NCBI GenBank assembly: GCA_030614915.1
Contig: JAUXAG010000011.1
Location: 26,516 to 90,515 of the forward strand
Source of the DNA: Actinomycetes bacterium
GTDB lineage: Bacteria > Planctomycetota > Phycisphaerae > JAACET01
Direction: 5' to 3'
Length of the DNA: 64,000 nt
The notes below the pieces were generated by a model, which saw only the letters and a list, made by a program, of their open reading frames with translations, had not been told where the DNA came from and searched no databases. Numbering within the stretch: the first letter of the stretch is position 1; each line of letters begins with the position of its first letter. The position numbers and the translations under genes are program-made. Positions 18,651-60,407 of this stretch are shown in pieces.

Positions 18651-18654
18651 TCCC

Positions 18655-18950
18655 CGCGCACCTCTGTCATCCCTACGCACCCCTGTCATCCCCGCGCAGG
18701 CGGGGATCCATCTTTCTCTATTTTCTGCGCAATCTGCGAAATCTGCGTCTAATGGTAATCTGTATTTCTTTCTGTATTTTCCCCCTCAAGCCTCAGGCCT
18801 CAAGCCTTTCTTACGCCGGGGGTCTCTTAACTGGAGCAGACACTTTTTGTCACCTTGCTGCGTCTCTGGGCCAAAATCGGCGTTCCCCCGAAAAAAGCCT
18901 AAAACTTTTGAAGAAAGCAAATTTCTTGCTTGACTAGCTAAGTCGTTTGT
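18655..18950. repeat. Intergenic mosaic of repeat modules (family A hairpin, F-type ATCTGCG 9-mers, E-type CCTCAAGCCTCAGGCC)
   Basis: tgtcatccccgcgcaggcgggg, ttctgcgcaatctgcgaaatctgcgtctaat, cctcaagcctcaggcctcaagcctttctt. Confidence 0.55.
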
Positions 18951-19169
18951 GCTATAAAGATTGTGGTCGCGAGGGGGCTATTTTCGTGCCCTTCTTGGTG
19001 AACCTGAAAACTTTTGGCAGGTGGAGCAGACACTTCGTGTCTTTGCTAATCGGCCTTGCCAGCGTCGTACGTTCAAACCGATCGGCGAAGGCTTCAATAA
19101 CTCTTAGGAATGGGGCGAATGCCCCCGTGTCGTTTTTGTTTGTTGTCAAGTTTAGAAAGAGAGAAAAAA

Positions 19170-20214: not shown

Positions 20215-20420
20215 TGCTATAATTCTTTTCTTTCTGCGCAATCTGCGAAGCTTGTACCTGCGGAGGCAGGTATCAGCGTCTAATAATCTTTCCGTATCTT
20301 TCTTCCCCTCTTCCTCTGTGCCTCTGAGCCTTTTCTTATCAGCGTTCATCTGTGAAATCTGTGGCTAATTCCTGTTTTCCTTCTTTGAATCAGCGTCTAA
20401 TAATCTGAATTTGCATAATC
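20215..20420. repeat. Intergenic mosaic repeats (F-type ctgcgcaatctgcgaa, D-type ctctgtgcctctgagcc, F-type tctgtggctaattcctg / cagcgtctaataatctg)
   Basis: Seen directly; paralogous to 18718-18780 and 5228-5290. Confidence 0.5.
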
Positions 20421-25454: not shown

Positions 25455-25635
25455 CGTTCCTCATTTATATTTAGCCCCCGGGTTCCGACCACAGGTCCCT
25501 ACGGGAAGGACGCTACGCGTTACCGGGGGTCTCTTTGTTTAGCCCCCAGGTTTATCCTGGGGGTTGCTTTTCTTACTTTGTGCCTCTGTGCCTTTCTTGT
25601 TCTTCCTCCCTCAAGCCTCAGGCCTTTCTTCTGTT
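25455..25635. repeat. Intergenic mosaic: family C (CCGACCACAGGTCCCTACGGGAAGGACGCTACGCGT) + family B palindrome + D-type TGTGCCTC + E-type CCTCAAGCCTCAGGCC
   Basis: Seen directly; the same module order is partly reproduced at 36960-37260. Confidence 0.65.
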
Positions 25636-27350: not shown

Positions 27351-27379
27351 TTGAAAAAATGGTTTTCTGCTAGTATGAT
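27351..27379 (+). promoter_or_regulatory. Sigma70-like promoter (TTGAAA-17 nt-TATGAT) upstream of the giant protein gene
   Basis: ttgaaa at 27351-27356 and tatgat at 27374-27379 with 17-nt spacer. About 59 nt upstream of ATG 27438, which has a GAGGT SD. Confidence 0.35.
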
Positions 27380-27437
27380 AACAGTTGCCACTTTCTTGCC
27401 GGGCTTTCTCCCGTATGGGCCTTATGCGAGGTTGCAG

Positions 27438-30400
27438 ATGGCTATCCGTTTCAAATGCACCAAGTGCTCCCATTCCTTGCAGGTCCCCGACGAACATGCC
27501 GGGCGCAAGGCAAAGTGTCCAAACTGCGGCCAGATTCTCCCAATACCCGCACCCGCTCAGGCCCAACCCCCAGCAAAGCCCCCAATCAAGCCTGCAGTTC
27601 CTGCTGTGCCCAGTCCTCTCGGGCCCAGCACCGCCGGACCAATCCCCTCTCTGACTAAAAAGCAAAAGCCGGGCAAGGCCAAACCGAAGCGGCCTTCGAA
27701 GCAGACACAGCCCCCGAAGGACCAGGGCCGACCACCAGAGTTGCGCTCTGGGAAAAAAGCCGTTATCTTCGGCCTCATCCTCGTGGCTGTGTTGGTCTTG
27801 GTTGTAGTCGTTTGGCAGACGGATTGGTTCAGTTCCAAGAAGGAGCCTTCCAGGCCGCAGCCTCACACGACGCCCACGACCCCTGCCACGACCAGAGCCC
27901 CGATCGAGAAAAAGCCCGCCATTACCGCCGAGATACTCCGGGAGCAAACCGATCAGCTGGAGTTGCAGTTGGCCACTTTGGAGAAGCTTTTGGCCGTAGA
28001 GACGACTGTCCCAGGCCTGGACCAGGGCTTGGTTGGGGCCTTCAAGGCCCTTGACGAGTTCTCTCGCCAAATACAAGGTCAACCACTTGCCCGCACGAAT
28101 CTCAGCCTCTTGCTGAGCCAGAACAGAAAATGGTTGTATGAAAAAGTGCTCGACCGGGCCCAGACTTTGGTTGGCCAATACCGTTTTACCTCTGCCAAGA
28201 CGTTGCTGGAGCAGATCTTGCCTGCCGGGGCAGTCGCCGCAAAGCCTGACACTGGTCCCCCGACACCGGCAAGGTTCCCTCGAAGAGTCGCCAGGTCCTT
28301 GGGCGGTGCTGGCTGGCAGGGCGCTCAGCAGGCCTGCAGGGATTTTGCCAATGGCGAGTTGATCAAGCGTGGCCTGCAGGGAGAGATCTGCTTATGGCTC
28401 CGCGAGGAATCCGACGAATTTGGCCAAACCAGCATAATTCTCAGCCTGGACGCTCCATCCGAACCCTTGAGCTCATTCCGCCGCCAGAACCAATCCCCGC
28501 AAAAATTCCAGCAAAAATGGGCACCTGCCAGTGAGCATTTATCCTTTATTCGCCAACTCCAGAGCGGGGCTGAAGCTGAGTGGGACATACCCACTGCCGG
28601 TCTCATGTATGCCACGATTCGAGAGTTGGAAAGAAGGTGTATGACCTTTGAGACACCGGCCAAGGCCGATTCGGAACTGATGAAGCGCTTGGCCCGACGA
28701 AAAGCTGACTACAAAGTGCACCAGCAAATACTCGCCTTGATTGCCCGTTGTCGTTACGCCCAAGCCTTGCAGTTGGCCCAACGGCTGCTAAAGGATGACC
28801 CGGTAAATCCTGACAACTATCGCTGGCTCCTGCGCTGCTATCTCGAAAGCTACAATACCAAGCCGTTAATCATAGATGCAACTTTGCTATTACGCTATAC
28901 CCGGAAGATAGCTGAGCTGTGCAAGTATGACGTGCCCAACAATTTGTTGGCTCTGAATCTGGCCCCCAGTGCTCTGCCACAAGGACCCGGTGCTTCCGTG
29001 CACCGTGAATTCATCCACAATCGGACATCTCTATTGAAACGCCTCAACGAGTATGCCGGACGCTACAAACCGGTAATCGACTGGATGCAAGGCGAGAGTG
29101 TGGATTTGGTTCTGCGAGATTTTGAGTATAACCCTTTCCTCGCTGGCGAGCCCGTGGACTTACTGGATGCCCAGGGCCTGCTTTACACCCTGTATAGCCG
29201 GGGGGCACCGCCCGGCCGGGCTGCACTCATCTTGGTCAGGCTTCGGCCGGATCAACAGGAGCAGGGACTAAGTTTGCATATGCCCAATGGCCAGCGCTAC
29301 CGCTTGTGGAACATTTATCCGCCCGCTGACTCGTCCGATCTCGATGCCGGCTTATCTGCCAGCCTGCCAGAGCCGCTCATCAGACCCCTGCTGGACTTGA
29401 GCCGCATCAACCCTTCAGAGCTCACTGGGCAGACGACTATACCGGTAGTTAACAGTTTGACTATACTGCGATGCCAGCTGGACAACGGCCAAAGCCGTGG
29501 CGGTTGGAGACTGCGGATTCCCCGTGCTGCTGTGGACAGAGAACAACTCGGACCGAAAGAATCTCGCTCCACTCGCAGGGCAACCCCCTCGCGTGGCTTG
29601 CCCTATCTTGGCCCAGACAGACCCACCACTCGGCGGAGCTCTTCGCGTACCCCTGCCGCAGAGGCGGACAAATACATATGGATCAGCTTCCCTACTAGCG
29701 CTGCCGGCGGACGTAGAGCTACTGTTAGTAGAGCTACGGTTAATGGTCGGAATCAGCCTATAACTTGTCTGGTACGCAGCGGCCGGGGCAAAATTGCATA
29801 CTTTAGCGACGCCAAAGGTAACTACGTAATCGGCTTGGATGGCAAGCGCCTCTACGCCGAAAAAACTGAACTGCTTCGGACGCTTAACGAGGAAGGTCCC
29901 GACTGGTATCTCGCCCTGGATACCAAGGCCTATCCTCCTGAACTGCGGGAGAAGCTGGAAGAGTATGATCGATCCGCTGCCCAGGAGCGTTCCCCTGGCC
30001 GTCCCAGCTTCGGACCTGGAGCTATTCTCCCCGGTCCCGGCATCGGCCCGGTCCCCGGCAGGCCCAGAACTTCCCGACCCCCTCGCCGTGGGCCGTTCAC
30101 TGTGGCCCAAGCTGCATCCTGGCTGAGCGACTTGGCCGCTCAGCCATCGGCGCCGCTTGGGCGACGCAGCTTTGCCGGCAGAAGAGCTCGGACCACCGAT
30201 TCGGGTCCCGTTGTGGGCAGGTGGTTGAACTGGCAGGGAGCAATCATAGCTCAACTGGACGGACGCATCAGACAGTTGGGTCGCGATGATTTTGCCGAGC
30301 CGATGTTTTATTCTCCTCAGGCCGCGGACGATTTGCTCAACACCGCCGACACCTATTACCAGACCAGCCTGCAGGCTTGGCCGACCTTGGCCGGGGAAGT

Positions 30401-32075
30401 CTACAGACAGGCTAATAAGTCCAGGCTTTCTCGCCTGATGGGCCTCGACGCCTCCGCTTCGGCTCGCCGCTCGGCGCGGACCCAGCGACTGACGGGCATA
30501 GACATGGATAAGGTCTCTTTGCGTGCGGAGGCTCTTCTGGCTTCGGGCGATTCCAACCAGGCCATAGCTATATATGCTGACCTGATCGGGTTCTTATCGC
30601 TTCAGCTGCAGCAGGCTATAACTCAGGACCTGTTATCGACCGGCGAACGGCCATTACGCGGCACTGGCGGACCTTCGGATCAGCCCCAACCTGGCCTGTT
30701 TCCAGGGCAGGATCTGAGTTCATTGGTCGATCGGCGAGCCCGGCAGGCGATTGGAGCCGGCCCCGGCCCTGCACGAGACTGGCGAACGGGCCGGACAACA
30801 ACTCCGGACAGCCGAAGGTTCTCGCCCCAGGAGCAGTTCTTCGCCGACGCGGATTTGCTGCTTGAGTCCTGTGCTGGAAGGGCCGCTGCGCTGGAGCAGG
30901 CCGGTTTGCTCGCCCAGGCCCGACAGAGTCTTCGCCAGAGTTCGGGCCGAATCCGGGCTTACCTCTTGACCGAACTTACCGAGTTCATCGAACGCAGCCG
31001 AGCCCGGCAAACGCCCGTATCTCCACAGCTCAAGCAAATCAGGCAAAGGTGGCAGGCAATCTCCCAGGAAAAAATCGCTGCCGCTCTGAGCCGCACCTTA
31101 CAGGCCGCCCGGGGCCAAGCCATTACCGTGCCCTCGCCCTCGAGTTCGCAAGAACCCTCGGCTCCACCAGTTGTTTCGACAGAACCAAGCAAGCCTCCCA
31201 TGAGCCTGGCCGCCTGGTTGGACAGCGAGAATACCGACCTCTCGCCGCTGGAGCCTGAACGCTTGATGGTCGCCGCCCAGTTCAGTTGGATTCGCGACTC
31301 GATTGACCTTGACCAGACCGAGCCCTTAGCCCCTGCCCAGCGCGCCCAGCGAATAATCGAACTGGCCCAAGCATATCAGAGTGGTGCACCAGCCGAGGCT
31401 GCCACTGCCGAGGCCCTGTGGCAGTTGGGCTCGTTCATGGCTGCTATGGGCTACCAAGCTGAGGCTTGGGATTGCCTTGGCCAGGCTGGGGCCCTATATA
31501 GCCAATTAGCCCTGGCCCTTCTTCCTGAGGCTATCGAACCTCGGGGCCGCTCCGAGCTCAGCCAACAGCAGCACTACTACGCTTACCGTGCAGCCGCCCT
31601 GGCTGCCCTGGCTGAAGCTGCCGCCATCCCCGCGGATGAACCTGTCTCTGCAAAGTGTTCTGCGATGTTCGCCGCTGAGATTCGCGCCAAGCTCTTGCAG
31701 CTCCAAAGAGGTTGGTCCGGACTGGCCCTCGCTGAAGAACCGCCCGCGATATTGACCACTGCCGGCCATGCCTTGCGGATTGTGCAGGACTTGGCCGAAG
31801 CAAAGGCCTATGCCCAACCAAGGATGCGCTTCTGGTGGTGGTATTATCCGCCGGAACTTTCTCAACGACAGCTTTCCGCTCCAGGGCGAGGACCCGCACG
31901 TCCGCCCACAAGCTCACCCAGGTCCAGGGACTCTTCGCGGCGGCTCAAGCTTGAATACATCGAGACTCAACAGCAAACCACGCCTGGCCGGCGTTCCCAG
32001 CCCCGCCGCCCTGCTCCGACCGGGCCTATTGACCACATCCTGCCCCCAACCCCCGGTGGTAGGCTCGGATTGTAG
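27438..32075 (+). CDS. Giant (1546 aa) membrane-anchored protein with N-terminal MJ0042-type zinc ribbon, Pro-rich linker, single TM, and a large C-terminal region with no recognisable domains
   Basis: FKCTKCSHSLQVPDEHAGRKAKCPNCGQIL double CxxC is paralogous to the N-terminus of the 4173 gene. TM helix AVIFGLILVAVLVLVVVVW. The rest is low-complexity (Ala/Arg/Gln/Pro-rich). ORF-track start 27351 is a TTG inside the predicted promoter. Confidence 0.7.
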   Translation: MAIRFKCTKCSHSLQVPDEHAGRKAKCPNCGQILPIPAPAQAQPPAKPPIKPAVPAVPSPLGPSTAGPIPSLTKKQKPGKAKPKRPSKQTQPPKDQGRPPELRSGKKAVIFGLILVAVLVLVVVVWQTDWFSSKKEPSRPQPHTTPTTPATTRAPIEKKPAITAEILREQTDQLELQLATLEKLLAVETTVPGLDQGLVGAFKALDEFSRQIQGQPLARTNLSLLLSQNRKWLYEKVLDRAQTLVGQYRFTSAKTLLEQILPAGAVAAKPDTGPPTPARFPRRVARSLGGAGWQGAQQACRDFANGELIKRGLQGEICLWLREESDEFGQTSIILSLDAPSEPLSSFRRQNQSPQKFQQKWAPASEHLSFIRQLQSGAEAEWDIPTAGLMYATIRELERRCMTFETPAKADSELMKRLARRKADYKVHQQILALIARCRYAQALQLAQRLLKDDPVNPDNYRWLLRCYLESYNTKPLIIDATLLLRYTRKIAELCKYDVPNNLLALNLAPSALPQGPGASVHREFIHNRTSLLKRLNEYAGRYKPVIDWMQGESVDLVLRDFEYNPFLAGEPVDLLDAQGLLYTLYSRGAPPGRAALILVRLRPDQQEQGLSLHMPNGQRYRLWNIYPPADSSDLDAGLSASLPEPLIRPLLDLSRINPSELTGQTTIPVVNSLTILRCQLDNGQSRGGWRLRIPRAAVDREQLGPKESRSTRRATPSRGLPYLGPDRPTTRRSSSRTPAAEADKYIWISFPTSAAGGRRATVSRATVNGRNQPITCLVRSGRGKIAYFSDAKGNYVIGLDGKRLYAEKTELLRTLNEEGPDWYLALDTKAYPPELREKLEEYDRSAAQERSPGRPSFGPGAILPGPGIGPVPGRPRTSRPPRRGPFTVAQAASWLSDLAAQPSAPLGRRSFAGRRARTTDSGPVVGRWLNWQGAIIAQLDGRIRQLGRDDFAEPMFYSPQAADDLLNTADTYYQTSLQAWPTLAGEVYRQANKSRLSRLMGLDASASARRSARTQRLTGIDMDKVSLRAEALLASGDSNQAIAIYADLIGFLSLQLQQAITQDLLSTGERPLRGTGGPSDQPQPGLFPGQDLSSLVDRRARQAIGAGPGPARDWRTGRTTTPDSRRFSPQEQFFADADLLLESCAGRAAALEQAGLLAQARQSLRQSSGRIRAYLLTELTEFIERSRARQTPVSPQLKQIRQRWQAISQEKIAAALSRTLQAARGQAITVPSPSSSQEPSAPPVVSTEPSKPPMSLAAWLDSENTDLSPLEPERLMVAAQFSWIRDSIDLDQTEPLAPAQRAQRIIELAQAYQSGAPAEAATAEALWQLGSFMAAMGYQAEAWDCLGQAGALYSQLALALLPEAIEPRGRSELSQQQHYYAYRAAALAALAEAAAIPADEPVSAKCSAMFAAEIRAKLLQLQRGWSGLALAEEPPAILTTAGHALRIVQDLAEAKAYAQPRMRFWWWYYPPELSQRQLSAPGRGPARPPTSSPRSRDSSRRLKLEYIETQQQTTPGRRSQPRRPAPTGPIDHILPPTPGGRLGL

Positions 32076-36009: not shown

Positions 36010-36621
36010 TTGAAACAAGTGCCCAGAATACTCCTGGCTACTAAAAACCGCGGCAAGTTACGGGAGATCCAGGCGGAGTTGGCCGACCTGGCTCTTGAGT
36101 TCGTTTGCTTGGCCGACCTGGACCCTTTGCCCGGGGCCGTTGAATCCGGGCCAACCTTTGCCGACAACGCCGACCTCAAGGCCCTGCACTACTCGACGCT
36201 TACCGGCCTGTGGACCCTGGCCGACGATTCCGGCCTGGAGGTCGACGCCCTCGACTCTAGGCCCGGCATCTTCTCTGCCCGCTACGCCGGGCCCGATGCC
36301 GACGATGATCGTAATAATGCCAAACTCCTGGACGAGCTTACAGACGTTCCCGACGAAAAACGAAGCGCGAGGTTTCGATGTGCCATGAGCTTAGCTGTGG
36401 GGGGTGAGATTATCGCCCGCAGTGAGGGCACGATCGAGGGGCGAATCACTTTCAGCCTGCAGGGACAGAATGGCTTTGGTTATGACCCCTTGTTTTACGT
36501 GGCCGAAAAGGGCTGCACCACCGCCCAGATGCCGCCCGAGCAGAAAAACGCCATCAGCCATCGCGGCCAAGCCATCCGGGCCATGAAACAAATCTTACTT
36601 CAGGAGAAGTTTAGATCATGA
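36010..36621 (+). CDS. rdgB: dITP/XTP pyrophosphatase (Ham1/RdgB family)
   Basis: ILLATKNRGKLREI N-terminal motif and FGYDP motif. Confidence 0.85.
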   Translation: MKQVPRILLATKNRGKLREIQAELADLALEFVCLADLDPLPGAVESGPTFADNADLKALHYSTLTGLWTLADDSGLEVDALDSRPGIFSARYAGPDADDDRNNAKLLDELTDVPDEKRSARFRCAMSLAVGGEIIARSEGTIEGRITFSLQGQNGFGYDPLFYVAEKGCTTAQMPPEQKNAISHRGQAIRAMKQILLQEKFRS

Positions 36622-36941
36622 TTACCACTCTTGCTTCGATCCTAGCTGCCACTGACATCGGCTTTAGTATCTTCGAGTTCGGTATGTTGGCCTGCTTCGG
36701 ACTCTGTTGGCCGGTCTCCGTTTACACCTCCGTCAAGACCAAGAGGACCGAAGGCAAGAGCCTGCTTTTCATGCTCATCGTCTTTGTCGGATACATTTCT
36801 GGCGTCATACACAAGGTCTACTACAACTTTGATTTTGTTATTATTTTGTACATATCCAACCTGCTTCTTGTTTTGGTGGACATCGTGCTCTACTTAAAAT
36901 ACTCTCGCCGCATCGCCCCGCCACCAGCCACACTCAATTAG
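36618..36941 (+). CDS. Small 3-TM membrane protein, translationally coupled to rdgB (ATGA overlap)
   Basis: Hydrophobic helices; noticeably AT-richer than neighbours; no homolog recognised. Confidence 0.4.
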   Translation: MITTLASILAATDIGFSIFEFGMLACFGLCWPVSVYTSVKTKRTEGKSLLFMLIVFVGYISGVIHKVYYNFDFVIILYISNLLLVLVDIVLYLKYSRRIAPPPATLN

Positions 36942-36949
36942 CTTTTTCA

Positions 36950-37265
36950 GCGGATGCATTAGGGTTTCCGACCACAGGTCCCTACGGGAAGGACGCTACG
37001 CGTTATCCTTGCTGTCATCCCTGCGCAGGCAGGGATCCATCTTATATTTAGCCCCCAGGTTTATCCTGGGGGTTTCTTTAGTATTTAGCCCCCAGGTTCC
37101 GACCACAGGTCCCTACGGGAAGGACGCTACGCGTCACCTGGGGTCTCTTTGTTTAGCCCCCAGGTTCCGACCACAGGTCCCTACGGGAAGGACGCTACGC
37201 GTTACCTGGGGTCTCTTTGTTTAGCCCCCAGGTTTATCCTGGGGGTTTCTTTAGTATTTAGCCCC
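36950..37265. repeat. Repeat hotspot: alternating family C (about 70 bp) and family B palindromes, plus a family A hairpin
   Basis: ccgaccacaggtccctacgggaaggacgctacgcgt appears at 36966, 37098 and 37163. agcccccaggtttatcctgggggtttcttt appears at 37050 and 37221. gtcatccctgcgcaggcagggatcc is at 37013. Confidence 0.75.
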
Positions 37266-37273
37266 CGGTTTTA

Positions 37274-37350
37274 GGGCCCCCCAATCGAGGGTCCCATCCG
37301 CCCATAAATCGGCGGATGGGTGCCCGCGATATTTCGCGATTGGGGGGCCC
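37274..37350. repeat. 77-bp nested palindromic element: 14-bp perfect inverted termini GGGCCCCCCAATCG/CGATTGGGGGGCCC enclosing two internal hairpins
   Basis: gggccccccaatcg...cccatccgcccataaatcggcggatggg...cgcgatatttcgcg...cgattggggggccc is seen directly. Could be a MITE or a structured RNA. Confidence 0.45.
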
Positions 37351-37367
37351 ACCGGGGGTCTCTTTAT

Positions 37368-37425
37368 CTGTCATCCCCGCGCAGGCGGGCTTATCATCGC
37401 CTTAGCGATAATCCAGTTTTTCATG
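37368..37425. repeat. REP-like hairpin repeat, family A
   Basis: ctgtcatccccgcgcaggcgggcttatcatcgccttagcgataatccagttttt. Confidence 0.55.
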
Positions 37426-37532
37426 AATCAAGTATTGATTTGACTGGCCGCCCTATTTAGCTATAATATACCTTGCCCCGCCTCGTTGTACGTGGCGGCC
37501 GTTGATTTGGCGGTATTGTCCTTTGGTGATTT

Positions 37533-37763
37533 ATGCCCATTTACGAATACATCTGCAACGATTGTGGACAGGCTTTTGACAAGCTTCTATTTAGCGCCGC
37601 AACCACGGCCAAGGTCGCCTGCCCTCATTGCGGCTCCAAGAAAACCACCAAGCAGCTCTCGACCATAAACGTCGGGTCATCCACCCCCGAGCCCTGCAAG
37701 GCCTGCCCGGCTCCGGGCCCAACTGGAACCTGCCCCGCCGGCGGTATGTGTAGCCAATTCTGA
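37533..37763 (+). CDS. FmdB-family zinc-ribbon regulatory protein (CxxC-x-CxxC)
   Basis: MPIYEYICNDCGQAF...CPHCGS matches the FmdB family N-terminal consensus MPIYEY.C..CG..FE. Confidence 0.7.
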   Translation: MPIYEYICNDCGQAFDKLLFSAATTAKVACPHCGSKKTTKQLSTINVGSSTPEPCKACPAPGPTGTCPAGGMCSQF

Positions 37764-37779: not shown

Positions 37780-39075
37780 TTATTCCGTTACGCGCTGGAT
37801 TCGCGCCCCCAGGGCGTTGAGTTTCTCCTCGATGCGTTGATAGCCGCGGTCTATGTGATATACTCGGCGGACCTCGGTAGTGCCCTCGGCTACCAACCCA
37901 GCCAACACCAACGCGGCGCTGGCTCGTAAGTCCGAGGCCATCACCGGTGCCCCCACCAGTTTTTTGACTCCGCAAACCACCACGGCTGGGCCCTGCTTGC
38001 GCAACTGGGCTCCCATTCGCCCCAGCTCGCCCACGTGCATGAAGCGGTCTGGAAACACCTTGTCGGTCACTACGCTGTTGCCGTCAGCCAAGCAGAGCAT
38101 AGCCAGCAATTGGGCCTGCAAATCCGTCGGAAACCCCGGATACGGCTGCGTCGTCACATCTATCGCCCTGAGCTTGCGACCCGTCTTGACTACCACCGCA
38201 CCAGCTTTCCCATGTCCGCCGCCGCTGATCTTTTCCACCGTAACCCCGACCAGCCGCAGATTAGCCGTTACCGCCATCATATGATCCAGCTGACAATTCT
38301 TGATCGTAACCTCACCTCTGGTCATACCCGCGGCAATCATAAACGTCCCCGCTTCTATCCGATCCGGGATCAGCGTATGCTCAGCCCCGCCCAGCCGCCT
38401 GACACCTTCGATCCTGATCCTTGGCGAGCCCTGCCCGCTGATCCTCGCGCCCATCTTGTTAAGAAAATCAGCCAAATCCACGATCTCCGGCTCACAGGCA
38501 GCCGACTCGATCACCGTTACCTCCTTAGCCAGACAAGCTGCGCTCATCACGTTAGCCGTGGCCAGCACGCTTGAGCCGAACGGCCCGCCCAGGAACAGCT
38601 CCCGCCCTTTCAATCGTCCAGCTCGCAGAGAGATATTCCCCCCCCTGGTCAGTCTGTACTGGGCACCCATAGCTCGCAGTCCTTGAAGGTGCAGGTCGAT
38701 TGGCCGATCCCCTATGGCGCAGCCGCCCGGCTGAGAGATCAAGGCCTTGCCTCGCTTGGCTACCAGAGGACCCATCACACAGATGCTGGCTCGCATCTGA
38801 CGCACCAGGTCATACCGGGCCAAGTGTTTCGATTCATCCTCCACCTGGACCCGCAAAGTGAACGGATCATTCTCATCCCGTTGGACCTTCACCCCCAGCT
38901 CGCCCAGCAGTCTGCTCAGCCGGATGATATCCACCAATCTGGGCACGCCGTGGATCACCGACTCTTCATTGGTCATCAGGCACGCTGCCAGGATCGGCAA
39001 ACAGGCGTTCTTTGAGCCGCTGACTGTAACCTCTCCCCTGAGCTTCGTTCCGCCTTCGACTATCAGTTTATCCAT
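37780..39075 (-). CDS. murA: UDP-N-acetylglucosamine 1-carboxyvinyltransferase
   Basis: MDKLIVEGGTKLRGEVTVSGSKNA N-terminus; 431 aa EPSP-synthase fold. Confidence 0.95.
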   Translation of the reverse strand: MDKLIVEGGTKLRGEVTVSGSKNACLPILAACLMTNEESVIHGVPRLVDIIRLSRLLGELGVKVQRDENDPFTLRVQVEDESKHLARYDLVRQMRASICVMGPLVAKRGKALISQPGGCAIGDRPIDLHLQGLRAMGAQYRLTRGGNISLRAGRLKGRELFLGGPFGSSVLATANVMSAACLAKEVTVIESAACEPEIVDLADFLNKMGARISGQGSPRIRIEGVRRLGGAEHTLIPDRIEAGTFMIAAGMTRGEVTIKNCQLDHMMAVTANLRLVGVTVEKISGGGHGKAGAVVVKTGRKLRAIDVTTQPYPGFPTDLQAQLLAMLCLADGNSVVTDKVFPDRFMHVGELGRMGAQLRKQGPAVVVCGVKKLVGAPVMASDLRASAALVLAGLVAEGTTEVRRVYHIDRGYQRIEEKLNALGARIQRVTE

Positions 39076-39169
39076 CCGTCTTACTCCCGCTTTACTCAGA
39101 CCTCTCGCATCACGCCTCAGACCTTACTACTCTGCGAAGCGGCGCTTCGCTGCGAAGCACGAGCAGGCC

Positions 39170-40072
39170 TCAAGCCTTTTTCTCCCCGATTACCACTCGT
39201 TCGTGTCCTTGCAAGTCCCGCACCGTCCGCACTTCGCTCAGATAGCCGGATTGCTCCAGCAGCCCTCGCGCCGCCTGGGCCTGTTCGTGTCCCAGTTCCA
39301 TTAGCAGCTTGCCCCGCTCTGCCAGATAGCCCTCGGCTCCATCGACAATTCTTCGATGCACCGCCAGGGCCTCGTCCCTCCCCAGCAGCGCCACTCGAGG
39401 CTCGTACTCGCGAACCTCGCGGGGCAAGTCCGGTATTTCTTCGGGCGATATGTACGGCGGATTGGAAACGATAAAGTCAAAACCGCCCGGACGCTTGCCC
39501 TCCTCGCTCAGGGCTTCAAACAGATCTCCTTGGACGAATCTAATACGTTCGCCAAGTTTGTGCTTCTGGGCATTGTCTTTAGCCACCGCCAGGGCCGACC
39601 CGGATATGTCCGTAGCCACCACCTCGGCGTGGGGCAAATTCTTAGCCAAGGCAATAGCTACGCAGCCCGAGCCTGTGCCTATTTCCAGTATCCCCGGATT
39701 GGCAAAGTGGCTGGTTCGGCAGATATTGATCATCTGTTCTACCAGCAGTTCCGTTTCCGGCCGGGGTATCAGAACGTCCGGGTTCACCGAAAATTCCAGC
39801 GAGTAGAAATAGGCCTTGCCCGTCAGATAGCCCACCGGAACCTGCTCGGCTCTAAGTTTTACCAGTTCCCGAAAGCGGGCCACCACCAGCTCCGGCACCG
39901 GCTGCTCGAAGCTGGTATAGAGTTGAATTCGCTCGCACCCCAGGGCATGGGACAGCAGCAACTCAACCGACAAACGGGCTCCCTCTACGCCTTTGTCCTC
40001 CAGATAGCCCCGCGACTTCTCCAGAAGCCGCCCCACAGTCCAGACCTGCTTTAGCTTGCGTTGGCCCGACAC
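39170..40072 (-). CDS. prmC: Release factor glutamine N5-methyltransferase (HemK/PrmC)
   Basis: VSNPPY catalytic motif; SAM-binding LEIGTGSGC. Confidence 0.85.
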   Translation of the reverse strand: MSGQRKLKQVWTVGRLLEKSRGYLEDKGVEGARLSVELLLSHALGCERIQLYTSFEQPVPELVVARFRELVKLRAEQVPVGYLTGKAYFYSLEFSVNPDVLIPRPETELLVEQMINICRTSHFANPGILEIGTGSGCVAIALAKNLPHAEVVATDISGSALAVAKDNAQKHKLGERIRFVQGDLFEALSEEGKRPGGFDFIVSNPPYISPEEIPDLPREVREYEPRVALLGRDEALAVHRRIVDGAEGYLAERGKLLMELGHEQAQAARGLLEQSGYLSEVRTVRDLQGHERVVIGEKKA

Positions 40073-40259: not shown

Positions 40260-42077
40260 TCAAAACGGCAGTTTCGCCCTTGGAAAACTAATCTCCTCGC
40301 CAACGGCCGGCGGAACGAACGGCTCGAAATGATCGTCCTTCCATCTTAGCCAGCGCAATGAAGGGTCTTCCAAAGAAACCCCAAACCGGAAACTAGCCTC
40401 CATTACTCGGCCATCATCGCTCAATTCCGTTACTTCAACAGTCATCCCGCTTAGCTCGATCCGTTCGCCCAGGGCCAGGGGGTGATCTGTACTTCGGAAC
40501 ATTTTATCGAACCACCGCCCTAAATATCCCCTCTTCAGACGTACAAGCAGTGTTTGGGCGTCTGGCCGACGGATTGTCTGTCTGGATAAAGCCGATGCAA
40601 GGGTCCTCATTCGGCGAGGAAGCGGTTGTTCGTTCACCGCTCTGGCGCTCAACATGTACAGCAGATGGCCGGGCGCAGGATGGTTCAGAAAAATCAGGTC
40701 CTGTTTCTCAATCGAAGAATCCATCTTGCCGAGCCCATGACAACTCTCCAGGAAGTACTGCGGGCCCATCGGCCACTTCGCACGCACATACAGCAGTACC
40801 GGCGAGCCCAGCACGTGGATTACTACAAGTACTATCGCCAGCAGGACCGTCGGGACCCGTCGGCTCAGTGCGTAATTATCCCGCAGCTGCACGCTTTTAA
40901 ACACCCAGCTCAGATACTCGCTCAGCAAGCCCATCGCACCGATACCGACGAAGAAGAGCTGCCGATCCTGCGGACTGCTCGCACATGGGGCAATGCTGGC
41001 CAGGATCATTCCCAACACCCAGAAACGAGCTACTCGGCTTGCCTTGAGCAGAGGACGAAACAGCACTGCCAATAGTACTAGTACCATCACGCCGATTAGC
41101 CAAACCCAGTGCAGGTTCTGCGGAGAAAAAATACTGAATTCCCCCGGAGGAATTGCCCACTGTCCCAGCAGCAAAATCGGCACGCGCACAGGCAGCACAA
41201 ACAAGAAGCCAAGCGGATCCGCCAGCGGATCCGTATAGATGCCCACCCCTTCGACCCCGTAGCCTTGGTACCACCAGAGTACTCGCCAGACACACACCAC
41301 CAGCACATACGGCATCAGCCCCTTGAGTCTTTGCCCGGCAGGCCCACGATCCAGCACAAGCGCATAACCCAGCAGATAGGCGCAAATGCCGATACCGGCC
41401 TCAGCCGACAGCAAACTCATGCCTAAAAGAATCGGCCCCAACGCCGCACCGGCTCGCCAATTATCTCGCCGCCAGCGATCCTGAGCGAGCAGGGCAAGAA
41501 CCCCAAACAACGTGGCCAATAGTGCGTTGCGGTTAGCCAAAAAACCCACCGCCGTGCCGTGCGAATCATCAAGGGCGTAGAGCAGCCCCGCCAATCCAGC
41601 TGCCGCAGCCACGCCCATGAATCGCCGGTATAGCACTGTTGTGCAGCCTATCAGTGCTCCAAACCATAGCAGGCTCTGAGCGTGCATCAGTCCCGCCCGA
41701 TTAGGCCAGAGCCAATAGTCCAACACATGTGTCATAGCAGCCAAGGGCCGCCAGAATGCCCATCGAATTTTCGGATACGTCCACCACGGAATCCAGCCGG
41801 CGTCCATCATCCGTTCGGTCCGTGCTGCATCCCCATCGAAGAATCGCCATATATCCGGCGGGACGGGTAGCAGCTCACCATACTCGCTCGAACCCATCAT
41901 CGCCCAGCGTTGCAGGTGATCTTCCAGGATCCACCCCACCCCCAGCGACGGCAGGGCAAGGCCCATTGCCAGTATTGCCAGTACAATCGGCAAATACCGC
42001 CAAGTCAACACCGCATCCAGCAACCCCGCCAGACCACCGTCAAGCCCTGTTGCCTGAACCTCTGCCTTCATTTGCAT
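40260..42077 (-). CDS. Polytopic membrane protein (>=10 TM) with C-terminal soluble domain; possible GT-C-fold glycosyltransferase; paralogue A
   Basis: About 50-55% identical to the adjacent gene. Conserved YA(L/I)DD(S/A)HG acidic motif in the first predicted extracytoplasmic loop, as in GT-C enzymes. Family not identified. Confidence 0.55.
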   Translation of the reverse strand: MQMKAEVQATGLDGGLAGLLDAVLTWRYLPIVLAILAMGLALPSLGVGWILEDHLQRWAMMGSSEYGELLPVPPDIWRFFDGDAARTERMMDAGWIPWWTYPKIRWAFWRPLAAMTHVLDYWLWPNRAGLMHAQSLLWFGALIGCTTVLYRRFMGVAAAAGLAGLLYALDDSHGTAVGFLANRNALLATLFGVLALLAQDRWRRDNWRAGAALGPILLGMSLLSAEAGIGICAYLLGYALVLDRGPAGQRLKGLMPYVLVVCVWRVLWWYQGYGVEGVGIYTDPLADPLGFLFVLPVRVPILLLGQWAIPPGEFSIFSPQNLHWVWLIGVMVLVLLAVLFRPLLKASRVARFWVLGMILASIAPCASSPQDRQLFFVGIGAMGLLSEYLSWVFKSVQLRDNYALSRRVPTVLLAIVLVVIHVLGSPVLLYVRAKWPMGPQYFLESCHGLGKMDSSIEKQDLIFLNHPAPGHLLYMLSARAVNEQPLPRRMRTLASALSRQTIRRPDAQTLLVRLKRGYLGRWFDKMFRSTDHPLALGERIELSGMTVEVTELSDDGRVMEASFRFGVSLEDPSLRWLRWKDDHFEPFVPPAVGEEISFPRAKLPF

Positions 42078-42133: not shown

Positions 42134-43951
42134 TCAGTGCTGAAGCTCTATCGTTTCTCCAATGGCCGGTGGGACGAATGGCTTGAACTGGTGATCCTCC
42201 CAGTAGATCCAGCGCAACGAAGAATCTTCTAAAGGAACCGCAAATCGAAAGGTAGCCTCCGCCGGTCGGCCATCATCCGTCAATTCTGTTACCGTAACGG
42301 TCATCCCTGTCAGTTTGACCTGCTCTCCCAGGGCCATGGGGTGGTTTTTGCCTCGGAAGAGTTGGTCGCACCAGCCTAGATATCCGCCTAGATATCCGTA
42401 TTTGGGACGGATGGTGAGTGTTTGGACATCAGGACGGTGTATTAGCACTGATGGTATCGCTGGGGCGAGAACTCTCATATGGCGTGGCACCGGCTGGTCA
42501 TTCAACTCCCTCATGCAAAGCAGAAAAATAGTGGCTAACGCTGCGGGCTGATTGACGATGACCACGTCCTGCTCTTCAACCGCCCCACCGGCCATGCACT
42601 GAGCGTAGTAATCTTTATCAGGAGTCCATGGACCAAAAGAGTACGCTGCGCGAAGTGGCAGAAGAATTGGGGCCGCGATCATATGAACAAGCACCAGGAC
42701 TAGTGCAAAGGAGACAGTAGCGAAACGCCGAATTAGATTACGTGGCTTGAGAGCTGATGCGCCAAACAGATCGGCCAATAATTGTGCCAGTAATCCCATC
42801 GCCCCGATGCCCACGAAGAACAGAAGACGATCCCAGGCCAACGTCGCGCAGGCAGGAACCACAGCCAGTAGCATTGCCAATGCCCAAAAGCGTGCCAGCC
42901 GACTGCGTCGAAGTAAGGGGACTAATATGGTGCCGATCAACAGGACAATAGCCAGAGCATACAACCACATAGTCGTTGCGTGTCTGGATGTGAGAGTTAT
43001 TAGACTGCCGATTTCCGCGGGAGGCAAAAACCATTGGCCCATCAACAGAAGAGGAGCATATTTGAGAGCTGATCCTGCAAAACGGGTTGGGTCATTTATG
43101 GGATCGATATACCAGCCCATACCCTCGACGCCATAACCCAATTGTGTCCAGCTAATCCGCCAGACGAGGACAACGGCAACGTACGGGACCAGCGTTGCTA
43201 ATCGCCGGCTCCAAGAGCCGCGATCCAGAATAAGCGCATAAGCCACCAAGTACGCGCAGATTCCAACGCCGATTTCAGCCGAGAGCAGGGCTGCCGTCAG
43301 AAGAATTGGGCCCAGAATCGCACCGGCTCGCCAACCGTCCCGCCGCCATCGATCGTGAGCGACCAGGGCAAGAACCCCAAACAACGTGGCCAATACTGCG
43401 TTGCGATTGGCCAAGAAACCTACCGGGATGCCATGGGCGTCATCAATGGCGTAGAGAAGCCCCGCTAATCCCGCTATCCATGTGAAACCCATAAATCTTC
43501 GATACAACAACGCCACAGCCGTTACCAGTAGACCGAACCACACAATGCTTTGAGCATGCATCAAAGCAGGGCTCTCAGGCCAAATTTGGTAGTCCAGCCA
43601 GTGAGTTATCGCTGTCAAAGGACGCCAGAATGCTCCTTTTATCTCTTTGAAAGTCCACCAGGGCAGGAAGCCGTGGTCCATCATATGAGCAGTATGTTCT
43701 GGATTACCGTCAATGAATCGAAAGATGTCCAGGGGGGAGTGTACAAACTCGCTGACGCTGCCCCCGCCAAGTATTACGCTACGATGGAGATAGTCGTCCA
43801 TGAACCACCCCACATTCAGCGACGGAAGGACAAGGGCCATCGCCAGTATGGCCAGCCCAATCGGCAAATACCGCCAAGTCAACACCGCGCGCAAAAACCT
43901 CGCCAGAGCACCGCTAGGCCCCGTTTTCTGAACGTCTGCTCTCATTTGCAT
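42134..43951 (-). CDS. Polytopic membrane protein, paralogue B of 40260..42077
   Basis: Same length (605 aa); collinear N-termini MQMRADVQKTG / MQMKAEVQATG. Confidence 0.55.
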   Translation of the reverse strand: MQMRADVQKTGPSGALARFLRAVLTWRYLPIGLAILAMALVLPSLNVGWFMDDYLHRSVILGGGSVSEFVHSPLDIFRFIDGNPEHTAHMMDHGFLPWWTFKEIKGAFWRPLTAITHWLDYQIWPESPALMHAQSIVWFGLLVTAVALLYRRFMGFTWIAGLAGLLYAIDDAHGIPVGFLANRNAVLATLFGVLALVAHDRWRRDGWRAGAILGPILLTAALLSAEIGVGICAYLVAYALILDRGSWSRRLATLVPYVAVVLVWRISWTQLGYGVEGMGWYIDPINDPTRFAGSALKYAPLLLMGQWFLPPAEIGSLITLTSRHATTMWLYALAIVLLIGTILVPLLRRSRLARFWALAMLLAVVPACATLAWDRLLFFVGIGAMGLLAQLLADLFGASALKPRNLIRRFATVSFALVLVLVHMIAAPILLPLRAAYSFGPWTPDKDYYAQCMAGGAVEEQDVVIVNQPAALATIFLLCMRELNDQPVPRHMRVLAPAIPSVLIHRPDVQTLTIRPKYGYLGGYLGWCDQLFRGKNHPMALGEQVKLTGMTVTVTELTDDGRPAEATFRFAVPLEDSSLRWIYWEDHQFKPFVPPAIGETIELQH

Positions 43952-47477: not shown

Positions 47478-47535
47478 GTCTGTCATTCCCGCGCAGGCGG
47501 GCTTATCACTGCTTTGGCGGTAATCCATCTTTGTT
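47478..47535. repeat. REP-like hairpin repeat family A followed by T-rich tract (likely ileS terminator)
   Basis: tctgtcattcccgcgcaggcgggcttatcactgctttggcggtaatccatctttgtttgttattttttgt. Confidence 0.55.
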
Positions 47536-47610
47536 TGTTATTTTTTGTCTGTTTTCTTCCTTCGTGTTCTTCGTGCTTATCAGAATCGATCAGTTTGAGG
47601 AATTAGAAAA

Positions 47611-49370: not shown

Positions 49371-49627
49371 GCTATGGCCTCCGGGACGGATGCTGGCGCC
49401 TCGTCTGCAAATGCTCCCGGCCCGAATGTCGGGGGCGTTAGAAGTGAAGAAACCCCCGGTGAAACCGGGGGATAAATATAGCATGATCCACAGAACCTTT
49501 ATGCACCTGCCATAAAGTGTGGCGTTGCCTCTCTGCGCAAAAGCTGCTAGCATATCTGTCCAGTCGGCTCGCGTGTAGCCTAAAGCGATGTAACGGACCC
49601 TCTTTCTCTGCGCCCGGGTTTACAGGC

Positions 49628-52600
49628 ATGAACGATTCTGATACATCTTCAACCTCACAGCCTCAGCAGGAGCTTAGCCGAGCCCCTAAGCGTCGCCGCA
49701 GACGCCGTTGGCTATATCTTGTTGTTTTGCTCGTGCTGGCCCTGGCGGTCCTCGCTTATGCCCTGCTGCCTTGGCTGATCCCCACGGATTGGCTCAGAAG
49801 CCGGATCGTCGCTGGAATCCAGGACCAGTTCGGCCGATCCGCCTCGATATCCTCAATCGAAATATCCTGGTCCCGCGGCATCATCGTCCGCGACATCACC
49901 ATTGATCGCCTGGAGCAATTCGGCCCGGGCTTTTTTCTAAAGGCCTCCCGCCTCCAGTTGGACTTTCGCCCTTTGCGCCTGCTCTTGCAGCACCGCCTGG
50001 GCAGCGTACGCGTGGATCAGCCGCAGTTATGGATCGTCGCCGACGCCGCCGGCAGATTGAACCTGACCTCCCTGCCACCACTCGACACCCAGGAGGACGC
50101 ATTTGAGCAAATTACCATAACCAATGCGAATCTGCAGTTTGTCGATCAGATTCACGCCCGCGAAACTCACCTGGCTATACCGCAGATCAACATTGCACGT
50201 GATGCTCGCAGCGGCCAATATACTTTTATCGCCCAGGGCGCCCCGGCCAAAACTACCGGCCAACCTCTCTTCAGCCTGCGGGCTAATTTCACCCCGCCCG
50301 GCAGCGGACCCGATCTGCAGGATATTCCGGTCAGAGGATCGGCGGAGTTGCTTTGGTCGGATTTTGATTTGGCCGCCGTACCACTGCCGCGATTGTCCAA
50401 AGTGGACTGCCAGGTCCTCAGCGGAACCACCAGCGGCCGGGCCAGATTGGAGCTTTACTCACAGGGCCGCGTCGAACTCTCCGAGTGCACCGCGGGAATA
50501 GATAAGCTCCGTCTGCAAGTAGCTCAAGTTTCCGAGCTGCCTCAAGCCACGCAGCAGCCCTCCGCCCCGGCCCAGATATCCATCCCTCAGGCCCGCTTCG
50601 AGCTCCACGGCTCCTACGAGTTTGTCTCCGGTGAGCTGACCGTCCAGACCCTCAGCGGGACGCTTGCCGGCCTGGATTTTAGCTCATCGTTACAGGGCCG
50701 ATTCTTCCCAGCCGAGCGAACCTTTGCTCCCAGCGACGCTTCACTTGCCCTTACGCTCCAACCCAGCAGACTCCGGGAGCAGTTTCCCTTTTTGGATGAG
50801 TTACTTTCTGAACATAATTTGACAATCACCGGCTCCAGCAGTCTGGCGGTGGATTTCAATCAGAACGCCAGGATCGATCATCTGAGTTTTTCGATTGACG
50901 CTTCCGACACCGGCCTCCATGTGCCGGCTCTACTGCACAAATCAGCCGGTTTGCCTTGCCGAATGAAACTCTCCGCTCTCATTGACCACAACACCGCCAG
51001 CTTGACCCTGGATGAGCCCTTGGAAATTGAGTTGGCCTCCGGCCGTTTTTCACTGGATATGAACTTGGCCCAGCCGCTGCGGATGGCATCTTTTCTGGAC
51101 CTCCTTATTCGGCCCACGGAGATTATCGAACTTGGCGCCCGGCAGTGGCCCCAGGCGCAGATCGACACCAGCTTGGAGATTGCCCAACTCAGCGACCTTA
51201 TGCCCGTCTTTCCAGTGCTGGCCGGCGTGCTCTCGGGCAACGGATTCACCTTGGCTGGGCCCCTACATGCCGAGTTGCACTTAGTGCCTCTGCCGGCTGA
51301 TGACCCAGACTCCCCGAGCCAGCTGACCGCTGCCGTTTCTCTACCCGCTCAGAGTTCTCTACAATGCTTGCCCTATTTTAGCAAGCCGCCTGGTGAGCCC
51401 CTGGATCTTTCATTTGCCGCTCGCTTGGGCCCGGGCAGTTCACGCTTGGATGACCTGCACCTCTCCTGCAAGATCGGCCAAGCCACCCTCTCCGTAACCG
51501 ATGCTTTTTGTGCCCTCCAGTTTTCACCTGGGGACTGGGCCGATTTTACTCCTTCGCTGTCAACTGCCGGCCGGTTTCGCCTTGAAAACTCCGCAGTCTT
51601 GGCCCAAGCCCTGCCCGCACTGCAAGGGCTTAGCTTGGCCGGTGATTTAGTCGGCCGATTTGATCTCGCCTTTGACCCCCTGGTAAGTTTGCGTCTGGCC
51701 TTGGCCTTGGATGCTACCGACTTGGCCTTGCGTGTACCTGCAAACCTCGATATGGCGGCCGGAGATCGTTCTGAGCCTGCTGTTTTATTTCAGAAGTCCG
51801 CCCTTACCCCGGCCATGCTAGACCTGCAGTTCCAGCTCGACTTGCCGGCCGACAACAACCCCCAGGCCAAGCCTCTATCCTGGCTCGAATTCACTGCCGG
51901 CAATGCAGCCACTGCTGCCTTCCAGGCCAAGTTGAACTGGACGCTTGGCGACTCGCTCGGCTCGATTGAGCTCAATCACCGACAGCTCCCAAGCAAGGAT
52001 GGTTTCGGTTTTGATCTAGCCCTTTCAAAAATTGACTTGGACAGCTTGGATGAAAACTTCCCTTTGTTGGCCTCGGCTTGTGAGCCTTATCAACTTGCCG
52101 GCAGTGTCGCTCTGAAGCTCAGCGGTCGGCTCAGCCCCGAACTGTCGCTCGAAAGCCTGGATTTCGCTGGGGATTTCACCGCTGCCCAGTGCGTCCTGCC
52201 GATCGCAACTGGCCAATCCAGCCTGTCCAATCCACCCGTTATTATGCGAAAATCAGCCCAACTGTCCCTCACTCTGCAAGCTCGCCTCAGCGCCGAAGAT
52301 TATGATGAGCAAGGCCGCCGACGCCTCAAAATCGAATCCGCCCAGTTGAACTTTGTCGGCTCGCAATTGAATCTTGCCGGCAGTGCCCTCTTGGCCGGCC
52401 CCCTCGAGAGCCCCAGCCATAGTCTTATGCAATCCGTTTTGCGATTTGAGCCATTTATCTCGGCCCAGTTCGACGCCGACGGCACTGTCGTTTTTGATGC
52501 AGATCTTTTCACTTTGTTTCCACCTCTGGAGGCGGTCCATCGTCGAATGGCATTGACTGGCCTTGTGAATTACAGCTTCCAATTTAGAGCTGAGCCCGGC

Positions 52601-58035: not shown

Positions 58036-58123
58036 CTAGAAGTCATCCCAAAACCTGCTTTCGCAGCAGAAATTGGGGGTTTGGGACGGCTTCTAAGTGC
58101 TTTCTTGTTAATCAACTCACTTC

Positions 58124-58185
58124 CTCAGGCTCGGCCCGTGGAAGGCGAAGCTGGCGGGGGGTAGAATGTAGGGCGTGGCACAGTT
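58124..58185. repeat. Left imperfect direct repeat flanking the lower-GC islet (core AGGCGAAGSTGGCGGGG..TAGAAT.TAG)
   Basis: ctcaggctcggcccgtggaaggcgaagctggcggggggtagaatgtagggcgtggcacag pairs with ctcaggccccctggcaggcgaaggtggcggggcatagaatctagccctacagacacc at 60353-60407. Confidence 0.45.
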
Positions 58186-58244
58186 ATAGTGCTGGCTGAG
58201 CTTGGTACATAAAATGGGGGACAGGTCAATACGGAGAATAGATT

Positions 58245-60352: not shown

Positions 60353-60407
60353 CTCAGGCCCCCTGGCAGGCGAAGGTGGCGGGGCATAGAATCTAGCCCT
60401 ACAGACA
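60353..60407. repeat. Right imperfect direct repeat flanking the lower-GC islet
   Basis: See the left repeat at 58124-58185. Confidence 0.45.

Follow-up and report, generated by a model that had tools for sequence, protein, structure and literature searches.

We analysed 64,000 nucleotides of contig JAUXAG010000011.1 (assembly GCA_030614915.1, positions 26,516 to 90,515 of the forward strand; the window in what follows). In this window a 591-nt spacer upstream of an fmdB-like gene (the hotspot) and no fewer than 13 further intergenic regions are built from short repeat modules, and they probably belong to a lineage-wide mosaic of small non-coding repeats, a Planctomycetota counterpart of the bacterial interspersed mosaic elements (BIMEs) of E. 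coli and the intergenic mosaic elements of Neisseria (NIMEs). This reading rests on the anatomy of the modules, covariation in their stems, presence and absence at orthologous sites, microsatellite arrays that change between relatives, and spread through the clade. A first-pass annotation of the same DNA had proposed a combinatorial system of miniature inverted-repeat transposable elements (MITEs) and repetitive extragenic palindromes (REPs). The varied combinations and the orthologous sites support it, but the system is of a known general kind (BIME, NIME, REP-MITE). What is new, in an uncultured clade of Planctomycetota, is a hairpin dedicated to carrying cargo, the nesting of such cargo in three levels, and gene cassettes with microsatellite arms.

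Intergenic repeats and the hotspot

The window has a GC content of about 57%, and the nearest named relatives of its MurA (37780-39075, minus strand) are metagenome-assembled genomes (MAGs) of Phycisphaerae and Sedimentisphaerales. Repeated 16-mers made up 13.4% of the intergenic bases versus 0.17% of the coding bases, the latter figure leaving out three internal gene duplications. In a fuzzy census of the window all module matches were intergenic except one weak match. A pattern of B arms with a free interior had six matches in the window, against none in any of 100 shuffles, and the four copies of the 36-nt core of module C are 100% identical.

When the intergenic regions were read again, all six module types of the first-pass annotation (A to F) were found at the positions cited there. 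Their recurrence in varied combinations was confirmed, both for 14 of the window's intergenic regions and for 31 clusters from nine genomes, and further modules were added: G, H, J and K in the window, and I, P and R in relatives. The module strings of the 31 clusters vary widely, and D and E alternate in both directions; because of this, the alternative that the modules are one long repeat split by segmentation is rejected. The segmentation itself stood for the module types, but not for C as a separate unit, since C consists of B-type arms whose loop holds a 36-nt cargo.

The hotspot spacer lies between a 107-aa membrane ORF (36618-36941) and a 76-aa gene of the Zn_ribbon_8/FmdB type (37533-37763). 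Modules cover 438 of its 591 bases, and 91% of 36950-37430, in the order C, A, B, C, C, B, X, A (Table 1). The left flank of the orphan C-long cargo, GCATTAGGKTTTCCGA, also occurs in L154 (L-numbers denote loci of relatives or of unrelated contigs that were compared with the window). In the middle, Tandem Repeats Finder (TRF) reported a 68-nt C unit in 2.2 copies with 98% identity. The stem of the A copy at 37012 holds a compensated C>T/G>A change. The promoter of the fmdB-like gene is not a module, and it forms the right edge of the mosaic.

Rfam gave nothing at gathering thresholds across the whole window, and within the hotspot only sub-threshold hairpin look-alikes such as anti-hemB and FtrB. 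No tRNA was found in the window. A CRISPR array was ruled out: the sequences between the hairpins are themselves repeat families, and their spacing is irregular. No cas-type domain was present in the 40 window ORFs scanned, a set that leaves out large ORFs such as 27351-32075 and 49517-53914.

Module B as a carrier of nested cargo

Module B is a 10-bp hairpin (7 GC) with the asymmetric flanks TTTA...TTTCTTT, and has the form TTTAGCCCCCAGG-TTTAT-CCTGGGGGTTTCTTT. GTDB species genomes scanned with the B-arm pattern gave 27 stretches from eight MAG assemblies, and a metagenome scan that demanded a cargo of 9-69 nt in B arms gave 17 stretches. B arms with cargo are present in these eight MAG species and on 17 metagenome contigs, and the expectation that the same modules occur in related genomes was confirmed there. 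The eight assemblies appear to represent one Phycisphaerae-like clade, as judged by the shared modules and by the MurA of DAOVKO.

At least five classes of cargo occur in B arms, with differing flanks. The cargo sits either in the apical loop of B or between the B stem and its tail, and the T-rich tail is kept in all eight species, even where module I has been inserted ahead of it. The 17 metagenome stretches contained variants of C-short, P in four loci, I-type hairpins and B nested within B, and cargo R (ATCCTGAGTAAGTCGAAGGGTTTTA) was found in three metagenome loci with different flanks. The C cargo by itself does not fold stably (z +0.14). Module B reads as a clade-specific GC-rich hairpin that serves as a carrier, the cargo being short, interchangeable, mostly palindromic (C-short, C-long, P, Q, R, I) and nested up to three deep. 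When compared with MITEs, the B arms are inverted repeats of 11-13 nt around a variable cargo.

MAGs carrying Phycisphaerae-type modules, DAOVKO01 (= GCA_030631725.1), JAACET01, CAYNDE01 and CAZMLE01 (L131-L154), bear the labels "Actinomycetes", "Actinomycetota" or "Pirellulales". These labels look wrong because of the modules and because the DAOVKO MurA is 87% identical to that of the window.

Orthologous sites in relatives

In the accC-accB spacer of L133 (MurA 87%; same MAG as L005) the same flanks enclose an empty B2 hairpin, TTTAGCCCCCGG-TTTTA-CCGGGGG, whereas in the window the same arms hold the C cargo and an extra B is present. The tandem arrays of this spacer differ as well: the window has D x2 and E x2, while in L133 D forms several blocks and E two, with more units and in a different order. 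The B2-armed unit of L154 (5960-6029) holds B2 and P without Q, against B2, P and Q in the window. In L004 (MurA 87%), the hairpin before the conserved fmdB promoter is an uninterrupted A1, where the window has an A2. Two spacers of L001 (MurA 86%) are much shorter than those of the window, in which they carry modules: prmC-murA has 16 nt versus 94 nt, and ileS-purN has 9 nt versus 142 nt. The stretch 39127-39179 of the window is without a counterpart in the shorter intergenic regions of L001, L004 and L006. These orthologous pairs show cargo that was gained or lost inside resident hairpins.

Another difference concerns the hotspot as a whole. In L004:6800-7400 a gene for a 100-aa membrane protein lies between two A-type hairpins, and at the corresponding place in the window the hairpins at 37012 and 37368 enclose B, C and X only. 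The difference between L004 and window 36941-37440 resembles a cassette-type exchange with A hairpins at its boundaries.

Module A, a GTCAT-tagged hairpin

The short form of module A (A1, at 18683 and 37012) has an 8-bp stem and a 4-nt loop. In the long form (A2, at 1357, 37368 and 47479) a second hairpin of 20-22 nt stands between GCGGG and AATCC, and its stem covaries between copies (ACTGC/GCGGT versus ATCGC/GCGAT). The A1 copy at 18683 folds with -16.1 kcal/mol (z -3.6). The pattern TGTCAT, 8 bp, 4 nt, 8 bp and CCA(G/T) was found in both A1 copies and in six lineage copies. Over eight lineage copies the stem is 100% paired, and two of the eight pairs vary, solely through compensatory changes of C-G to U-A, a pattern that was not attained in any of 500 shuffles.

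An unpaired (C)GTCAT tag, a GC-rich stem of about 8 bp, a short loop, a conserved 3' C and ...ATCC are the anatomy of the NTS hairpin and of the Ssn-related motif (SRM), and A has all of them. Hairpins of this type have been described as dRS3 of NIMEs (PMC1797815), as CGTC-tagged REP (PMC3733652) and as the REP of Neisseria REPINs, which are REP doublets (bioRxiv 10.1101/2021.07.10.451892). NTS and the Ssn-related motif are bound and cut by Ssn GIY-YIG nucleases solely as single-stranded DNA (PMC11893778). Over its 20 nt, the left half of A has the same sequence as the Neisseria NIME hairpin in L020. It is also present on viral or proviral contigs, more than 120 of them, whose GC content ranges from 41 to 72% and which include classic Neisseria NIME arrays. 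In seven loci of unrelated contigs, Ssn-like GIY-YIG ORFs adjoin an A-type hairpin, which reproduces the published association (PMC11893778), and in L064 a 96-aa Ssn-like ORF has an A copy on each side. Module A is not lineage-specific. Its membership in a pan-bacterial class of GTCAT/CGTC-tagged REPs (dRS3/NTS, SRM) is well supported by its anatomy, with the protein partner unproven. Since the dRS3/NTS hairpin occurs here nearly unchanged, it is a pan-bacterial element.

NTS hairpins are not generally followed by short tandem repeats, as seen in unrelated contigs (3 of 167 with such repeats downstream, 5 of 167 upstream). In six frames, the A/NTS hairpin yields the recurrent spurious ORF peptides VIPAKAGIQ, MPAFAGMT, LDSRLRGND and SFPRRRES (L058, L064 and other viral loci), which are a likely origin of false "hypothetical proteins" in annotations. 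Immediately after a B+P unit, L158:1647-1690 carries another CGTC-tagged hairpin family (CGTCATTGCGAGAAGGCCGAAGGCCGACGCGGCC), and there may therefore be two or more tagged REP families in this clade.

A gene cassette with microsatellite arms

In the window, one gene inserted between rnfD and rnfC, in the rnf operon, is enclosed by inverted E arrays. It encodes a protein of 121 aa that belongs to PF05635 and is annotated as a four-helix-bundle protein or "23S rRNA intervening sequence protein". With a length of 17-23 nt, the arms are 91-94% complementary, and the minimum-energy and centroid RNA folds are both predicted to close the cassette with a 24-bp stem of E arms. Homologues of the protein, 64-83% identical, were found in five other genomic contexts (Table 1): beside a gene for an extracytoplasmic function (ECF) sigma factor, downstream of an aminotransferase gene in two related contig sets (L174/L175 and L176/L177), between two ketoacyl-synthase genes, and downstream of a radical-SAM gene. 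All five contexts are bracketed by (GGCYTGRGG)n … (CCYCARGCC)n, with arms of 17-62 nt that are 78-100% complementary and stand 400-480 nt apart. The nearest homologues lie on very short contigs, as repeats do.

We found no paper in the literature that describes this E-armed architecture. It resembles the 23S rRNA intervening sequences, in which a PF05635 "S23p" gene also lies inside inverted repeats predicted to form a long closing RNA stem. Those are located in rRNA, whereas the E-armed cassette occurs in protein-coding operons and intergenic DNA, and its arms are 8-nt microsatellite arrays that also stand solo in other intergenic regions. It suggests that genes of the 23S intervening-sequence type spread as stem-enclosed cassettes beyond rRNA. 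Where E arrays stand alone in the window, they may be remnants of such cassettes or derived from them. The last 5' E unit of the cassette gives a -35-like box (TTGAGT), 17 nt ahead of a TAGCAT- or TAGTAT-like box.

How the mosaic may have arisen

In the account that we favour, a counterpart of BIMEs and NIMEs, the mosaic would have three layers. The A hairpins after co-oriented genes would be able to delimit swappable segments; the B hairpins would hold nested cargo; and the microsatellites D, E, F and K would expand, contract and interleave via slippage and unequal exchange, with inverted E arrays becoming the arms of the four-helix-bundle gene cassette. Growth would proceed through the copying of modules into hairpin loops that lie open in single-stranded DNA, either enzymatically (by an Ssn-like or other nuclease or transposase) or by a switch of template from one copy to another with the same arms. 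Further contributions would come from tandem duplication, as in the 68-nt C-C repeat, and from slippage. The DNA would be mostly selfish or neutral, with transcription attenuation or mRNA 3'-end stabilisation by the hairpins, and recombination break points at the A hairpins, as possible side effects.

Several results weigh against this account. Neither the window nor about 270 kb of lineage loci yielded a RAYT, the transposase that goes with REPs (searched by phmmer using the E. coli RayT, even with E up to 10), a transposase of another kind, or an Ssn-like ORF (searched by a hidden Markov model (HMM) made from the seven Ssn ORFs); for this reason no mobilising enzyme is tied to any module. 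No target-site duplication was recognisable at the empty and filled pairs compared, and insertion and deletion are indistinguishable in pairwise comparisons of orthologous sites. The published SRM pattern matched once in the window (18684-18711) versus 0.46 matches expected by chance. The A copy at 37012 misses it because of its compensated C>T change, and the three A2 copies because of their 20-nt insert. No A copy fits the strict NTS consensus CGTCATTCCCGCGMAVGCGGGAATCYRG with at most one mismatch allowed, the best having four mismatches. The modules are also not always independent, since the junctions A-TCTTATA-B, B-AGTA-B and B-TCTTAC-D recur; these fixed junctions and the co-oriented clusters imply that some composites propagate together. 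Finally, 12 of the 14 module-bearing intergenic regions have their modules on the C-rich + strand irrespective of gene strand, which the account leaves unexplained. GC skew is negative over nearly the entire window. A tie between orientation and replication was unsupported, as the clusters of relatives stood 14:9 to GC skew (p = 0.40), and the orientation of B was mixed in 28 loci.

A bolder version, which we regard as doubtful, holds that the clade has an undescribed mobilisation directed at hairpin loops. Small palindromic modules would be copied into the apical loops of resident hairpins, which would produce the three-level nesting, microsatellite arms would carry the four-helix-bundle cassette into operons, and the enzyme could be a single-stranded DNA nuclease of the Ssn GIY-YIG type acting as a transposase. 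If true, this newly described nuclease family would gain a role in spreading repeats.

The hairpins could instead be selected RNA elements, intrinsic terminators or stabilisers of mRNA 3' ends, alike through common function and local duplication and not through mobility; this we consider unlikely. A terminator role of A was suggested in the first-pass annotation. All five window copies lie 14-72 nt past the stop of a co-oriented gene, 13 of 17 lineage copies are downstream of one, and the A hairpin just upstream of the fmdB promoter is conserved in L004; but no U-tract directly follows the stem, what is published for this class of hairpin is that a nuclease recognises it as single-stranded DNA, and the role is weakly supported. 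The copies do follow gene stops, as was claimed, but all five are in co-directional regions and none is convergent. B is the most terminator-like module in a consensus scan, and its 10-bp stem and retained T-rich tail fit an intrinsic terminator in structure. Its orientation does not, being random with respect to transcription: 19 copies are compatible and 19 incompatible (+/+ 7, +/- 12, -/- 14, -/+ 5). The reverse strand of B is without a U-tract, and copies also stand in a divergent promoter region (10245), antisense within the accB-accC operon and in the prmC-murA gap. The C cargo is identical in its four copies, yet unfolded alone, and several hairpins are stacked per intergenic region, which is superfluous for a terminator. 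Termination is at most a side effect for some copies.

It is rather improbable that the kit is a segmentation artefact, with the modules being fragments of one or a few longer composites (for example a MITE of about 150-300 bp) that decay by internal deletion. Nearly all modules within a cluster are co-oriented, there is a rough polarity of hairpins followed by CT-rich repeats (Br->D 5:0, f->E 5:0, A->Bl 4:0), junction sequences recur, C can be seen as B arms plus cargo, and A2 as A1 plus an insert. Against this, no two of the 31 clusters need the same order; D and E occur in both directions (2:3), and Br->A is found besides A->Bl. The hotspot order, the cargo classes in B arms with unrelated flanks, and the orthologous site of L133, which is an empty hairpin and not a truncated composite, also speak against it. 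Improbable as well, in our judgement, is that the arrays are recombination cassettes in the NIME sense. The gene between two A-type hairpins in L004 would agree with it, and in Neisseria the "NTS-gene-NTS" architecture and effects on recombination are documented (PMC11893778, PMC1797815). However, one locus stands behind it, A is present in just 5 of the 14 module-bearing intergenic regions, most arrays have no A bounds, and the window and lineage loci gave no recombinase or Ssn gene.

Comparison with known systems

The hairpin A shares with Neisseria dRS3/NTS the 5' GTCAT tag, the 8-bp stem, the 4-nt loop and the 3' ATCC(A/G) tail (PMC1797815; PMC11893778), and NIME arrays are likewise intergenic mosaics of many short repeat families whose composition varies at syntenic sites. 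Unlike there, A is a minority component here, and most arrays are not repeat units with A on both sides: NIMEs consist of 50-150-bp RS units, each flanked by dRS3, whereas in the window the hotspot alone is enclosed by two A copies and 9 of 14 regions have no A. The stem variant ATCCCC/GGGGAT and the interrupted A2 depart from the strict NTS consensus, no ssn gene accompanies them in the DNA searched, and the host belongs to Planctomycetota and is not a proteobacterium.

E. coli REP/BIME and REPIN-RAYT systems (PMC3116915; PMC3733652) are alike in having short GC-rich extragenic palindromes with an unpaired tag, in mosaics with other short motifs. In E. coli as here, the sites include operon interiors and gaps that separate co-directional or convergent genes. 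REP loops are known as insertion targets of insertion sequence (IS) elements, while the loop inserts here are repeats of 18-40 nt. The tag is GTAG in E. coli but of the CGTC type (GTCAT) in A and TTTAG in B. REPINs are inverted doublets, whereas the copies here are mostly direct, with one inverted B pair seen in L152. Neither the GTAG tag nor regular inverted doublets nor a repeat-flanked RAYT was found in the loci searched.

Intergenic repeats in mosaic form had been presented as a peculiarity of enterobacteria and Neisseria, and the same design is now seen in a poorly known, uncultured clade of Planctomycetota. In cyanobacteria, small dispersed repeats (SDRs) of about 20-40 nt reportedly insert precisely in palindromes or repeats without obvious target duplications, and short tandemly repeated repetitive (STRR) sequences form heptamer arrays, as Elhai et al. 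are said to have noted in 2008. The present system would be similar in its very small modules and in tandem intergenic repeats of 7-9 nt with variable copy number. It would differ in phylum and sequences, and in having the dedicated carrier hairpin B and three-level nesting. How such small repeats enter hairpin loops has been open since the cyanobacterial SDRs, and the pairs of empty and filled hairpins offer a concrete route. Precise insertion of SDRs into HIP1 is cited in PMC4390886.

Metagenome assemblies break at these repeats, which also give rise to spurious ORFs (the VIPAKAGIQ and SFPRRRES peptides are examples) and extend gene ends, so that annotating them improves MAG quality.

Tandem repeats and other module sites

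D, E and F are tandem arrays of 8-9-nt units according to TRF, and like STRR-type microsatellites (7-9-nt intergenic tandem units) they vary in copy number between relatives. Some arrays run into gene 3' ends. About 13 codons at the end of the leuA-like ORF are encoded by the D array (8579-8616), and the stop codons of both prmC (39164-39179) and the rnfC-like gene (63046-63074) are overlapped by E units, whose reverse complement contains TGA. The palindrome J recurs within a D array in L141. The sites of the window are collected in Table 1.

Table 1. Repeat modules, cassettes and promoter in the window, with cassette homologues in other loci
Feature	Position	Strand	Remark
A2 copy	1357-1410	+	25 nt past stop of NDK-domain gene
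H, f and E-like modules	5252-5300	+	
(TCGCAAT)3 and D array (CTTTGTGC x4.8)	8528-8616	+	D array is 3' tail of leuA-like ORF on minus strand
B1 hairpin (10245-10277) and D array (10356-10381)	10245-10382	+	Divergent promoter region
Two A half-sites, A1, F, G', f, E array, B right-arm remnant	18650-18830	+	Includes SRM-fitting copy 18684-18711
F, small hairpin, G, D-like, H, G	20232-20406	+	
C unit (25470-25536), B1 (25538-25570), D x2, E x2	25470-25630	+	Antisense within accB-accC operon
Orphan C-long cargo, degenerate arms	36963-37005	+	Core 36968-37003, 100% identical to three other copies
A1, intact GTCAT-tagged NTS/SRM-type hairpin	37012-37043	+	Stem 37017-37024 / 37029-37036
B1 hairpin, empty (TTTAGCCCCCAGG-TTTAT-CCTGGGGGTTTCTTT)	37047-37079	+	-19.7 kcal/mol, z -5.0; terminator-like in consensus scan
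C unit 1, 36-nt C cargo in loop of B-type arms	37084-37150	+	
C unit 2, tandem copy of unit 1	37152-37218	+	68-nt period, 98% identity
B1 hairpin, second empty copy	37220-37252	+	
Three-level nested hairpin	37257-37365	+	-81.3 kcal/mol, z -8.6; absent from first-pass annotation
Outer layer of nested hairpin, B2 arms	37257-37272 / 37351-37365		
Middle layer of nested hairpin, palindrome P	37273-37287 / 37325-37350		
Inner layer of nested hairpin, hairpin Q	37288-37324		
A2 directly upstream of fmdB promoter	37368-37421	+	20-nt second hairpin between GCGGG and AATCC
Sigma-70-type promoter TTGACT-16-TATAAT of fmdB-like gene	37440-37467	+	11/12 consensus matches; also in L004
J palindrome (39127-39164) and E units	39127-39179	+	E units overlap prmC stop codon
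A2 copy, then T-rich K repeat (CTTCGTGY)	47479-47578	+	A2 14 nt past ileS stop
Diverged B-like hairpin	49446-49476	-	Opposite orientation
C-short-like 31-nt unit, 2.4 copies (…AGGAYGCTWCGCRTTGATTT)	61204-61278	+	
E-armed cassette	62594-63069	-	Inverted E arrays 62594-62616 and 63018-63069 around PF05635 gene 62620-62985; between rnfD and rnfC
Cassette homologue loci	L173:578-1044, L174:764-1260, L176:2824-3305, L178:1408-1908, L180:1401-2009		

A segment of about 2.2 kb with low GC content (48%), at 58120-60402, contains tandemly duplicated ORFs of 168 and 169 aa (58245-58751 and 58990-59499) together with a weak DctQ-like ORF. On either side of the segment stand direct repeats, about 50 nt long and 80% identical (58120-58172 and 60343-60402), and it may be an inserted island. 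The 168/169-aa ORFs were considered as transposases and rejected, having no Pfam match and a membrane-anchored look.

Two tandem paralogous genes of 605 aa each (40260-42077 and 42134-43951) share 73-80% DNA identity in blocks and have no Pfam match. The ORF at 19110-20198, also without a Pfam match, is composed of about seven tandem repeats of 126 nt (42 aa; …YGSNVVWYGYDGSDYEIFLYDG…), and module-rich intergenic regions lie on both sides of it.

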